Assembly (NCBI GenBank): GCA_038245905.1
Contig: JBBRRY010000009.1
Coordinates: 1 to 64,000, forward strand
Source of the DNA: Thermoanaerobaculia bacterium
GTDB lineage: Bacteria; Acidobacteriota; Thermoanaerobaculia; UBA5066
DNA: 64,000 nucleotides
Reading direction: 5' to 3'
Position numbers and translations under genes: made by a program. Shown here one piece after another: positions 23,543 through 58,321 of the stretch. The notes under the pieces are model-generated. The model searched no databases and was not told the DNA's origin. It saw only the letters and a program-made list of their open reading frames with translations. Every line of letters starts with the position of its first letter. Positions within the stretch are counted from its first letter, which is position 1.

Positions 23543-25591
23543 GTGGCGAAGACGAGGACCCCGGCGGCGCGAGCGGCCAAGCTCCGGGAGGAGATCGAGA
23601 GGCACGCGCGCCTCTACTACGTGGAGGACCGGCCCGAGCTCGCCGATGCCGAATACGATCGGCTCGTCAGAGAGCTGGTCGCTCTCGAGGAGGCCCATCC
23701 CGAGCTCGTCACGCCGGATTCGCCGACGCAGCGCGTGGGCGGCACGCCGGTGGGCGAGCTCCCGAACGTGCGGCACGAAGTCCCGCTCCTTTCGCTCGAG
23801 AACGCATATGCGCCGGATGATCTGCGGGCGTGGATCGACCGCGTCGTGGACCGCCTCGACGGGCGCGTCCCCGCGTTCGTCTGCGAGCTGAAGATCGACG
23901 GCCTCTCCGTGTCCCTCGTTTACGAGAATGGCCGCCTCACGAGGGCCGCGACGCGGGGCGACGGTGCGACGGGGGAGGACGTAACGCCAAACGTGCGGAC
24001 AATCCACGCGATTCCGCTGAATCTGCGCAACGGTGACGCGGCGCGAAAGCTTCCTTTGAAGGTGAAGATTCCGGCCGCGCTCGAGGTGCGCGGCGAGGTA
24101 TACATGTCGAAGAAGTCCTTCGCCGCGCTGAACGAGAAACGCGAGGAGGCGGGGGAGCCGCTTTTTGCGAACCCGCGCAACTCCGCTGCGGGCTCACTGC
24201 GCCTGCTGGACGCGAAGATCACGGCAAGCCGCCGTCTCTCCGCCTTTCTCTACTCGATCGCGCGCTGGGAGGGAGAAGGCGAGCCGCAAACGCAGGCCGA
24301 ATCCCTCTACACACTCGAAGAAATTTCTTTTCCGGTTAACCCGCATCGTGAGCTGGTAGCGGGCGTGGACGGGATCCTGACGTTCATCGAGGCCTGGCGG
24401 GAGAAGCGCCACGCGCTGCCGTTCGAGACGGACGGCGTCGTCGTGAAGGTGGACGCTCTCGCCGACCAGAAACGCCTCGGGCAGACCGCGAAGTTCCCGC
24501 GCTGGGCAATCGCGTACAAGTACCCGCCCGAGGAGGCGACGACCGTCGTGACGGACATCGTCGTGCAGGTCGGGCGGACGGGCGTCCTGACGCCCGTCGC
24601 GGAGTTCACGCCCGTCCTCCTCGCGGGGTCGACGGTCCGGCGCGCGACGCTCCACAACATGGAGGACCTCGCGCGCAAGGACGTGCGAGTCGGCGATACC
24701 GTGGCCGTCGAGAAGGGAGGCGATGTGATCCCGAAGGTCACGCGCGTCCTCCTCGAGAAGCGGCCGAAGGGCGCGAAGGCGTTCGCGATGCCGGCGTGCT
24801 GCCCGGCCTGCGGCGAGCCCGTCGTCCAGCGTGAGGGCGAGGTCGCGGTGCGCTGCGTGAACCCGGGCTGCCCGGCGCAGGTCGCCGAGTCGCTCCGGCA
24901 CTTCGTGACCCGCCGGGCGATGGACGTCGAGGGGCTCGGCGACGAGCGCATCGAGCAGCTCCGCGAGGCGGGCCTCCTGAAGGACGTCGCGTCGCTCTAC
25001 GACCTGACGGCCGAAGAGCTCGCGCCGCTCGAGCGCTGGGGCGAGAAGTCGGCCGCGAACGTGATCGTCGAGATCGCCCGCTCGAAGGATGCCGGGCTCG
25101 CGCGGCTCCTCTTCGGCCTCGGGATCCGGCAGGTCGGGGAAAAGACGGCGAAGGTCCTCGCGCGGCGATTCCTCTCGATGAACGCGCTCATCGGGGCGGA
25201 TGAAGAGGCCCTGACGTCCGTCCCGGAGATCGGGCCGGAAACGGCTCGTGGGATCCTCGAGTGGTTCGCCCACGAGCCCAACCAGGGTCTCCTCGAGAAA
25301 CTCGAGAAGGCCGGCGTCCGTATGACGGAGGAGGCCGGGCCCGCAAGGCCGGGCGGAGCCCTGTCCGGCGGGATCTACGTCCTCACGGGGACGCTCCCCC
25401 GGCGGACCCGGGACGCAGCAGCGGCGGCCATCGAGTCGGCGGGCGGAAAGGTGAGCAGCAGCGTGTCGAAGAAGACGACGGCGGTCATCGCGGGCGAAGA
25501 GGCCGGGGGCAAGCTCGACAAGGCGAGGGCTCTCGGCGTCGCCGTGTGGACCGAGGACGACCTGGACCGTGCGCTCGGAGAGCCTTCTTGA
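23543..25591 (+). CDS. ligA: NAD-dependent DNA ligase
   Basis: ELKIDG, TRGDG, NPRN, QVGRTG, zinc finger, C-terminal BRCT. Confidence 0.98.
24049..24325. repeat. intragenic AT-rich motif pair (convergent) in ligA
   Basis: + GCTTCCTTTGAAGGTGAAGA at 24049; - AATTTCTTCGAGTGTGTAGA at 24325-24306. Confidence 0.55.
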
Positions 25592-25596
25592 GCGCG

Positions 25597-57184: not shown

Positions 57185-57196
57185 TCGACCCTTACC

Positions 57197-58321
57197 TTAA
57201 CCCCGATGCGGGCCGACGGCCCGGACCGCCCAGCGCAGCTTGGCGGCGGAGGAGCGGGGGTTCGCGCGGCGCTCTTCGGGCGCCGCGCGGACGACTTCGT
57301 CCGCGACGCGCGCGTAGAGGCCGCTTTCGAGGCCCGCCTTGAACGCCTTTTTCACGAGCCGGTCCTCGCCCGAGTGGAACGTCACGATCGCGACGCGCCC
57401 GCCGAGAGCGAGGCAGTGGGGCAGGTCGCGGAGGAACGCCTCGAGCGCCGTCAGCTCGTCGTTGACGAGGATGCGGATCGCCTGGAAGGTCCGCTGAAGG
57501 GAGGATTTCTTTGCTTCGGACGCGTCACGCGAGGTCGTTCCTCGGTAGGCGAGCTCGACGGCAGCCGCAACGTCCGAAGTTCGGAGAAGAGGGGGATTTT
57601 TTAGAAGGTGAATAGGGCCGGAGCCGCGGCGCGCTTCATTCGTCTCATGCAATGCTGCGGCGATTCCCGCCGCTTTGGGCTCGTCTCCCAACCTTCTAAG
57701 AAAATCTTCTATCTCTTCTCTCTTCATCCGAAGCAGAAGAGCTCCGGCGGGGAGGCCGCGCGTGGGGTTCATCCGGAGGTCGAGCGGCGCGTCGTGCTTC
57801 CACGAGAAGCCGCGGCTCGGGTCGTCGAGCTGCATCGAGGAGACGCCGAGGTCGGCGAGGATGACGTCGGCGCCGGCCGCGCCACGAGCGTCTTCGGCGA
57901 GGAGCTTGCGGAGGCCTGCGTAGTTCCGCCTCACGCAGCGCACTGCGTCGGTCTCTCCGCGCTCCCTCGCGAGGGCCTTCAGCCGCGCCTCGGCCCTCGG
58001 CAGCTCGATGGGGTCGACGTCGAGGCCGAGGAGCCGGCCGCCGGGCAGGATCCTCTTCAAAAGCTCCGAAGCGTGGCCGCCATATCCGAGCGTCGCGTCC
58101 ACGGCCACGTCGCCGGGGGCGGGGGCGAGCGCCTCGAGAACCTCGGCGACGAGGACGGGAACGTGGCTGCCGGCGGGCGTCTTCCCGGAGGCGATCACTT
58201 TCGTGCGCGCGTCCGGATACCGCGCCGCGTCGTGTTCCTTGTACTTCTCCTCGAATTTCTTCGGGTGGGTGCCCGCGTAGCGCGGACGCCTCTTGTGCTC
58301 TGGCGGTGGGTCGAAGTTCAC
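57197..58321 (-). CDS. rsmH: 16S rRNA m4C1402 methyltransferase RsmH (stand-alone copy with N-terminal extension)
   Basis: HVPVL, DATLGYGGH, DLGVSSMQLD, PLDLRM, FQAIRI.VNDEL, FHSGEDR.VK, NPRS. Confidence 0.9.
   Translation of the reverse strand: MNFDPPPEHKRRPRYAGTHPKKFEEKYKEHDAARYPDARTKVIASGKTPAGSHVPVLVAEVLEALAPAPGDVAVDATLGYGGHASELLKRILPGGRLLGLDVDPIELPRAEARLKALARERGETDAVRCVRRNYAGLRKLLAEDARGAAGADVILADLGVSSMQLDDPSRGFSWKHDAPLDLRMNPTRGLPAGALLLRMKREEIEDFLRRLGDEPKAAGIAAALHETNEARRGSGPIHLLKNPPLLRTSDVAAAVELAYRGTTSRDASEAKKSSLQRTFQAIRILVNDELTALEAFLRDLPHCLALGGRVAIVTFHSGEDRLVKKAFKAGLESGLYARVADEVVRAAPEERRANPRSSAAKLRWAVRAVGPHRG
57501..57725. repeat. intragenic AT-rich motif cluster in rsmH
   Basis: + GATTTCTTTG at 57504; + GATTTTTTAGAAGGTGAATA at 57595; - GATTTTCTTAGAAGGTTGGGAG at 57706-57685. 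Confidence 0.65.

Follow-up and report, generated by a model that had tools for sequence, protein, structure and literature searches.

Uptake signal sequences (USS) and DNA uptake sequences (DUS) are single sites that recur about once per kb. They came into conserved genes by substitution, lie in both orientations, keep orthologous places, are specific to a lineage and have a long consensus with AT-rich flanks. Among other chromosomal words, parS and the Noc-binding (NBS), SlmA-binding (SBS) and matS sites are palindromic, and Chi and the FtsK-orienting polar sequences (KOPS) are skewed with respect to replication; all are 8 to 16 bp long and single, and they are often restricted to one region. 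Inverted repeats of one consensus on either side of a segment are known from invertible promoters and intragenic invertons. Here we describe a word with a different layout in a 64,000-nucleotide stretch from a Thermoanaerobaculia bacterium, positions 1 to 64000 of contig C9 of a 3.80-Mb assembly (113 contigs, 67.8% G+C, 96% complete); this whole stretch is called the window below. An earlier reading made from the letters of the window (here, the sequence-only reading) had noticed dispersed AT-rich copies of such a word inside housekeeping genes and had proposed binding sites for a chromosome-handling protein or an uptake-type sequence. We confirmed that the observation is real. The copies, hereafter called arms, are AT-rich, 24 to 38 nt long and present in ∼300 copies in one genus of GC-rich bacteria from soil and sediment, the host of the window. 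Most of them form head-to-head (convergent) pairs, an architecture that the sequence-only reading did not contain.

Enrichment of the word over a shuffled background, which the sequence-only reading had supposed, was borne out in the window, where GATTTCTTNGAAG with at most 1 mismatch occurred 5 times against 0.15 expected and none of 100 shuffles reached 5. Genome-wide, 77 exact copies of GATTTCTTNGAAG were found, with N being A in 36, T in 27, C in 13 and G in 1. As a control for enrichment, we used the same sequence read backwards. The 14-mer GATTTCTTWGAAGG with at most 2 mismatches was found 298 times in the genome, compared with 19 in this reversed sequence, and a 20-mer with at most 4 mismatches was found 193 times, compared with 11. 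Iteration of a matrix against a zero-order background drifted to generic AT-rich or purine-rich sequence and was replaced by these mismatch counts and by a leave-one-out position weight matrix (PWM) of 24 nt. The matrix gave 295 matches (23 in the control) at a score of at least 24 and 186 matches (3 in the control) at a score of at least 28. It holds ∼30 bits of information over 24 nt, contiguous from position 4 to position 22 by the leave-one-out procedure. In the aligned copies, a purine run of ∼12 to 15 nt lies 5′ of the core and GGTGAAGAGGG lies 3′ of it, and the arm can be written as a purine run followed by GATTTCTTWGAAGGTGAAGAG. The arm is asymmetric, its sole dyad being a 4+1+4 element, TTCTNAGAA. 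Viral contigs contained six single matches, every one in a contig of 33 to 37% GC; we read them as chance. No paper describing the repeat turned up in a full-text literature search, with supplementary files outside its reach.

The word is enriched only in the genus of the window. The exact 14-mer was present at 23 to 128 copies in each of the 19 genomes of the genus, including the window's own, with 0 copies in the controls, and it was absent from all 12 genomes that represent two further families of the order (10 of 10 when G019 and G024, both flagged as unpublished, are set aside). When 81 genomes were drawn evenly from the class, TTCTTWGAAGG occurred 93 to 269 times in the five genomes of the genus, versus 7 to 11 times in the control, and stood at the control level in the other 76, which include two other genera of the same family; the 9-mer TTCTTAGAA followed the same pattern across the draw (5/5 versus 0/76). 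De novo counts of AT-rich words revealed no comparable family in 400 kb of a sister genus or in 200 kb from each of two other families. When one genome per species was searched (185,579 species), an exact 21-mer matched at least 117 stretches, and among the 80 matches listed, 78 belonged to metagenome-assembled genomes (MAGs) of Thermoanaerobaculia or Acidobacteriota/Acidobacteria, one to an Aquifex MAG and one to an entry named “uncultured bacterium.” The sequence-only reading had considered that the patches might track assembly or read-quality artefacts. The word is no assembly artefact: all 19 genomes of the genus are enriched in it, some of them assembled in 2 to 10 contigs, and over the pair in rsmH, the window is colinear with a contig obtained from another study's run (X3 record 24). 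Six sequencing runs were compared in this way as assembled contigs, a form in which rare variants are lost.

The pairing of the arms follows a strict orientation. Among neighbors within 600 bp, the arrangement “+ then −” was seen 50 times, “− then +” 5 times, “+ +” 9 times and “− −” 8 times, and a more sensitive rule yielded 80 convergent pairs versus 4 divergent ones. An inverted partner lay 30 to 350 bp downstream of 98 of 140 strong copies and upstream of 11 of 140. The same held for 117 loci of other public genomes, in which 70 of 106 perfect arms had the partner downstream, versus 4 of 106 upstream. The outer span of the convergent pairs was 70, 101, 134, 180 and 288 bp at the 5th, 25th, 50th, 75th and 95th percentiles, and the spacer is ordinary host sequence of 20 to 300 bp that is specific to each locus. 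Beyond 350 bp, all four arrangements of arm pairs were equally common, with no excess at transposon-size distances. Arms of one pair were no more alike than arms of different pairs (likeness of 22.22 observed versus 22.76 ± 0.41; z = −1.3). Thus, what the arms conform to is a shared consensus, in trans, rather than the arm that they face. In addition, the central W differed between the partner arms in 27 of 49 pairs.

At a score of at least 24, the 3.8 Mb of the genome carry 229 loci, about one per 11 to 17 kb. Predicted genes contain 215 of the 295 copies and coding sequence makes up 93.5% of the genome, which amounts to a fourfold intergenic excess; gene-based counts are approximate, as the gene caller is imperfect and missed ligA on the + strand. 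Copies within genes were sense in 96 cases and antisense in 119 and had a flat distribution of relative positions along the genes, and the solo arms were likewise found on both strands (18 sense versus 26 antisense). Orientation did not follow GC skew, with 23 arms on the + and 24 on the − strand where the skew is positive and 22 on the + and 16 on the − strand where it is negative. The loci were spaced like random points, with a coefficient of variation (CV) of 1.07 versus 0.98 ± 0.07. In the genome G011, which is assembled in 2 contigs, the first 100 of the 152 matches lay on the largest contig (3.9 Mb) between 0.16 and 2.88 Mb and formed no block restricted to the origin or the terminus.

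The window holds four pairs. Their host genes are those that the sequence-only reading had named, as attested by Pfam matches to the NAD-ligase domains, Pterin_bind, Peptidase_M64, PP-loop and MraW. The first pair (24046-24328) lies in ligA (23543-25591, + strand). Its left arm, at 24046-24069 on the + strand, is sense and scores 30.0 on the PWM, its right arm, at 24305-24328 on the − strand, is antisense and scores 24.8, and the span is 283 bp; both arms are kept in G014, the sole relative that covers the region. The second pair (37560-37627) lies in folP (36967-37860, − strand) and spans 68 bp. The left arm (37560-37583, + strand, antisense, PWM score of 27.7) is placed over SSLRRNLPS of a conserved helix of dihydropteroate synthase (DHPS) and is found in 5 of 6 aligned genomes, and the right arm (37604-37627, − strand, sense), over EISSSEE, is found in 6 of 6. 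An extra left arm of folP with one T fewer (37363-37386, + strand, antisense, PWM score of 24.1) is likewise present in 6 of 6 aligned genomes, including the window. The third pair (45330-45655) extends over 326 bp across a gene boundary. Its left arm (45330-45353, + strand) lies antisense in the N-terminal linker of an M64 peptidase, has a PWM score of 36.8, and is kept in G008, where its tail carries an 18-nt purine insertion, and in G003 and degenerate in G011; its right arm (45632-45655, − strand, sense, PWM score of 25.9) lies in the C-terminal part of tilS (45418-46389, − strand), is found in 7 of 7 aligned sequences, including the window, and is degenerate in G013. The fourth pair (57592-57708) lies in rsmH (57197-58321, − strand) and spans 117 bp. 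The left arm (57592-57615, + strand, antisense), over IHLLKNPP, scores 35.0 and sits in an indel-rich stretch; its tail is variable in length, L010 has lost the arm, and 4 species have it in truncated form. The right arm (57685-57708, − strand, sense), over EDFLRRLG, scores 30.8 and is kept in 18 of 18 species.

Twelve copies had been claimed by the sequence-only reading, and on the basis of PWM score, pairing and conservation, nine of them belong to the family while three are weak or chance matches. Eight of the twelve reach a score of at least 24, and the ninth, the right arm of the folP pair, scores 16.5 but is paired and kept in all six genomes. One of the three others is a weak additional left arm (45301-45324, + strand, PWM score of 7.9) in the M64 peptidase, whose gene is on the − strand, directly after the predicted signal peptide; it is kept in G008 and G003, and in G011 its place is taken by GC-rich purines over the same length. 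Another is a partial copy in rsmH (57501-57524, + strand, PWM score of 6.4) that comprises the first half only, AAGAAATC; most of the 18 species retain it, and the peptide that it overlies, ASEAKKSSLQR, is conserved. The intergenic copy reported at 52121 (52118-52141, + strand) had to be withdrawn from the family: it scores 3.0, has neither purine flanks nor a partner, lies in a spacer that could not be aligned in relatives and is most likely a chance match to the first 13 nt.

The conservation of codons under the arms points to selection on nucleotides, not on protein. At the right arm of the rsmH pair, the species compared use GAA in 17 of 17, GAT in 18 of 18, CTT in 17 of 18 and AGA in 16 of 18 cases, and at the other arm, they use CTT in 17 of 17, CTA in 11 of 11 and AGA in 13 of 13. 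Elsewhere in the rsmH alignment, Asp is encoded by GAC in 16 to 18 of the 18 species, Leu and Arg codons end in C or G, and flanking synonymous sites vary freely, at ∼75 to 83% overall identity. The claim of the sequence-only reading that the signal acts at the level of DNA was thus strengthened, as copies are sense and antisense, encode unrelated peptides, include intergenic ones and bring in rare A/T-ending codons that are fixed across 18 species. Conservation in related genomes, which it had named as a check, was also seen, with places kept in up to 18 species for rsmH and in 5 to 7 genomes for folP and tilS, and places were stable across ∼20% nucleotide divergence.

Arms overlie conserved parts of proteins. 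The folP product aligns to solved DHPS structures in the PDB across both arms of its pair, with a single gap, of 1 residue, at the 37560 arm and none in the region of the 37604 arm. In rsmH, the sense arm encodes the conserved stretch EDFLRR..GDE, and the other arm falls in an indel-rich loop, where it corresponds to 18 nt inserted in frame when compared with the sister genus. In Ser/Thr kinase paralogues, two arms bracket a conserved stretch of the kinase domain, an assignment made by eye. At the 37560 arm of folP, G014 has a GC-rich sequence of identical length where the window and four other genomes have the arm, and in the M64 gene of G011, a GC-rich purine stretch of equal length replaces one arm. 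The purine or pyrimidine tails differ in length between species and between runs, from 0 to ∼40 nt in rsmH. These equal-length replacements and tail indels indicate that the cores are written by substitution and that the tails change by small in-frame indels.

The tails look like hot spots for length change by slippage of GAR triplets. A GAAGAC insertion was seen at window position 45291 in contigs of runs X3 and X4. The kinase paralogues with a pair at the same place are located at G000:C24:11311-30014, C35:10371-13055, C11:59695-62706 and C25:29576-29683, and in most of them, the C35 copy being an exception, the pyrimidine tail gives rise to a poly-Ser/Pro insertion after the second arm. At G000:C7:31716-31790, three same-strand copies stand in tandem with a 24-nt period. 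They lie within the 5′ end of a minus-strand gene or just upstream of it, and their translation, if it occurs, would yield a Ser/Lys-rich N terminus, SLSKKSFSSSSRKSPSSLSKKSSS.

A single consensus is thus kept at hundreds of places regardless of the partner, the transcribed strand and the direction of replication, which fits paired sites of a two-fold symmetric factor acting in trans. We tentatively propose that the copies are candidate recognition sites for a sequence-specific factor that would be confined to the genus and would read DNA. The proposal draws on the ∼30 bits of contiguous information, the 80 versus 4 bias for convergent pairs, the lack of covariation between partner arms, the lack of a bias towards RNA pairing in the sense transcript, the lack of strand or GC-skew preference, the conservation at orthologous places with rare codons fixed, the gain and loss of arms without length change and the restriction to one genus. 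Two copies of the factor, or a complex with two-fold symmetry, would bind the two facing arms, and flexible bridging or tracking, rather than a rigid, phased loop, may link the bound factors across the spacer. The sites would be built in place by substitution over tolerant codons and by small in-frame indels in the purine tails, and would then be maintained by selection or drive. Marking or organization of the chromosome and self-recognition for recombination are both possible roles, and we make no choice between them.

Several results weigh against this proposal. About 30% of the strong arms lack a detectable partner. Information that is even over at least 20 contiguous bases, with no gaps at a period of ∼10 bp, is unusual for a simple protein site and would fit a nucleic-acid guide or common descent as well. 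Among the candidate factor families that were profiled (Y1_Tnp, Resolvase, RVT_1, DDE_Tnp_1 and GIY-YIG), none combined conservation in the genus with restriction to it. The helical phase of the spans was inconsistent (at a period of 10.5, r was 0.056 for the own genome versus 0.23 for the other genomes), and as there is no consistent phase, a rigid protein loop is unsupported and flexible bridging or tracking is favored. Genes with copies within 250 bp of both ends numbered only two, and neither of these looked nuclease-like when the first 70 residues were inspected by eye, no domain-library search being made.

The features that argue for paired recognition sites have to be set against other explanations. 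Competence machinery might prefer conspecific DNA that carries the word, and recombination would then drive near-matches to the consensus with no benefit at the individual locus. Such uptake would account for substitution into conserved genes, equal use of both orientations, retention of orthologous places, lineage specificity and a long consensus with AT-rich flanks, all of which are seen here, as is a location that is mostly genic in spite of the fourfold intergenic excess. All 5 genomes of the genus that were tested contain ComEC and DprA; however, both are widespread (10 and 11 of 14 control genomes, respectively) and not diagnostic. Density is low for an uptake signal, the high density of single sites typical of USS/DUS being replaced by strong copies that are mostly paired, and the loci are spaced randomly and no more evenly than that. 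The head-to-head pairing at 50 to 350 bp is the feature that uptake leaves unexplained, and we consider this explanation unlikely. Action on RNA appears less probable still: a pair could fold in the transcript as a long-range stem involved in processing, stability or termination, or its purine arm could base-pair with the 16S rRNA 3′ end. The convergent geometry indeed gives a 5′ purine arm and a 3′ pyrimidine arm with a CU-rich tail in transcripts of both strands. However, the arms of a pair do not covary, as judged from the z score given above, and in the sense RNA of 45 pairs in confident genes, G·U (193) and A·C (175) combinations were about as frequent, with Watson-Crick pairs at only 853 of 1,620 positions (53%). 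Solo arms show no sense bias, and arms lie in the middle of essential genes at uniform relative positions. A scan of positions 37001 to 57000 for consensus promoters and terminators gave none at the folP or M64/tilS arms, and Rfam gave no match at 9 intergenic pair loci. With respect to the 16S rRNA, the consensus pairs over 15 contiguous positions (3 of them G·U) with the 3′ end and trailer of G011, a run reached by 1 in 20,000 shuffles. However, a 16S end was detected in 13 genomes of the genus, and in 8 of them another trailer breaks the run, although these 8 have as many copies of the motif or more. Thus, complementarity is not kept across the genus, and this, with the absence of sense bias, led us to reject a Shine-Dalgarno-like or 16S-tail element. 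The pairing of the G011 type is probably in part due to chance. The genus has two variants of the 16S trailer, in 5 and 8 genomes, the commoner of which breaks the run, and by hand count, the run of 15 falls to 11 positions in the sister genus and to 8 in other families. rRNA leader elements of the boxA type scored at most 3 on the motif matrix in the genus and were set aside.

The inverted arms also recall mobile DNA, of which they could be remnants or non-autonomous copies, such as MITEs (miniature inverted-repeat transposable elements), REPINs or elements like the Rickettsia palindromic elements (RPE), with the arms as terminal inverted repeats. Arms 50 to 350 bp apart match the size range of MITEs, hundreds of copies are specific to the lineage, and compared with the sister genus, the tails and some of the arms are inserted in frame. 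The interior, however, consists of unique host sequence, alignable with homologues in other phyla, arms are gained and lost without change in length, and there is neither a sharp outer boundary nor a target duplication. The places are stable over the divergence noted above, and arm pairs show no excess at the distances expected of transposons. Moreover, the Y1 transposase (PF01797) is absent from the own genome and present in 1 of the 18 others of the genus, and DDE_Tnp_1 was found in 5 of those 18. We therefore judge a mobile origin very improbable. Specifically, the conserved interior and the target-site duplication of MITE/RPE families are absent, as are the cognate Y1 transposase and the extragenic palindromic units of repetitive extragenic palindromes (REP) and of REPINs with their REP-associated tyrosine transposases (RAYT). 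It is scarcely credible that the arms serve a site-specific invertase for crossover, with flipping of the spacer, also inside genes, although inverted repeats of a shared consensus do flank segments of 50 to 350 bp at many loci. Orthologues are colinear (rsmH in 18 of 18 species, folP in 6 of 6 genomes, and tilS/M64 and ligA in every alignable sequence), the pairs occupy conserved parts of ligA, folP, tilS and rsmH whose inversion would break the protein, and partner arms often disagree at the central W. The recombinase profile covered the serine family and not the tyrosine one; serine recombinases numbered 0 in the own genome, which is 96% complete, and were found in 8 of the 18 others of the genus. 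Among the joints listed for the run contigs over the window, none involved a change of strand; such contigs drop rare variants.

Other described systems were compared with the arms. The sequence-only reading had likened the sites to parS, matS, SlmA and Noc sites, and these analogies were not supported, since the site is asymmetric, ∼24 nt long and paired at 50 to 350 bp and its loci are randomly spread, with no origin or terminus block among the 100 places listed in G011; the palindromic, regionally restricted site of 14 to 16 bp that marks this class was not found. A relationship to Chi or KOPS was rejected on the balanced GC-skew counts, which show no orientation skew with replication. Retrons and diversity-generating retroelements were rejected likewise, as the reverse transcriptase PF00078 is absent from the own genome and occurs in 3 of the 18 others of the genus. 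For the Ssn/NTS-SRM system, no small GIY-YIG gene flanked by hairpin repeats was found. The own genome and 15 of the 18 others of the genus each have a sole GIY-YIG match, situated in a frame of 340 to 1,187 amino acids (aa), mostly of about 600 aa, and we infer that it is UvrC. A small GIY-YIG frame (83 aa) was present in one case, in G011. The neighboring families f2 and f3 (G021, G022, G027, G029 and others) have up to 6 Y1 transposase genes per genome and GIY-YIG frames of 84 to 190 aa, so that separate repeat systems of the REP/RAYT or Ssn type may exist in these families.

The surroundings of the arms in the window provided some further observations. The MraW/RsmH homologue at 57197-58321 has an N-terminal extension and, at 374 aa, is a long form. 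Contig C2 of the own genome has another rsmH-like match, and the sister genus (G074) also has two copies, with 65% and 44% identity. A tRNA gene (46441-46515, + strand) adjoins the 5′ end of tilS and is the sole Rfam match in the window. Positions 52169-55492 on the + strand encode a tricorn-type protease with PD40 repeats, a tricorn PDZ domain, a C1 domain and an S41 domain. At 42003-42669, the summed contig depth reached 2,441 in run X1, versus ∼50 to 120 elsewhere, with similar jumps in X2 to X4; this region is inside a 642-aa minus-strand gene (41362-43287), and we took it to be a highly conserved segment common to many organisms of the samples.

To return to the paired recognition sites, it is possible, though doubtful, that the genus possesses a dedicated factor, either a protein complex with two-fold symmetry or a guide-based one, by which its genome is “bar-coded” with ∼150 to 230 head-to-head pairs across essential genes. 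If this were true, the arms would represent a new class of chromosome-wide cis-signal that might mark self DNA for recombination, repair or defense, or load a tracking machine at defined gates, a signal without counterpart among uptake sequences, REPs, MITEs, invertons and partition sites. The dedicated factor, if it exists, would provide a case of natural recognition of an asymmetric word of ∼24 nt in head-to-head pairs. It would extend the short list formed by Chi, KOPS, parS, the Noc, SlmA and MatP sites and USS/DUS, and might be of practical use as a DNA-binding module for long sites. It would also have forced hundreds of essential codons to rare spellings throughout the history of the genus, a cost of selection that implies either an important function or a strong drive. 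Since the restriction to one genus is sharp and many genomes of this genus are assembled, phylogenetic profiling should leave few candidate genes.

The arms thus share features with several known systems and differ from each of them. Like the USS of Pasteurellaceae and the DUS of Neisseriaceae, they are copies of an over-represented, lineage-specific word with an extended consensus, set in tolerant frames in a host that has competence genes, but they are strictly paired, ∼10-fold less dense and, at ∼24 to 38 nt, endowed with purine tails. In the Ssn system of nucleases and NTS/SRM motifs, the motifs are hairpins found in clusters near genes, among them ssnA (Chenal et al. 2025, PMC11893778). 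That system is comparable in its hundreds of oriented motifs of ∼30 nt, which have a dedicated reader there and a proposed link to transformation (PMC11893778), whereas our arms are not hairpins and flank only 2 genes on both sides. REPs and REPINs also occur in hundreds of copies as lineage-specific, long-lived inverted doublets ∼100 bp across; however, they are extragenic, each REP is a small palindrome and the whole doublet is repeated with its spacer, whereas the arms described here are mostly genic and non-palindromic and enclose host sequence. Rickettsia palindromic elements and Correia-type MITEs are of similar overall size, and they too are repeats translated inside genes. They are insertions with a conserved interior, whereas here the interior belongs to the host gene and the arm cores replace codons one for one. 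As with parS, the Noc, SlmA and MatP sites, Chi and KOPS, words embedded in genes would be read on the DNA by one chromosome-handling protein, but the word of this genus is asymmetric, ∼24 nt long, paired, unskewed and randomly spread.

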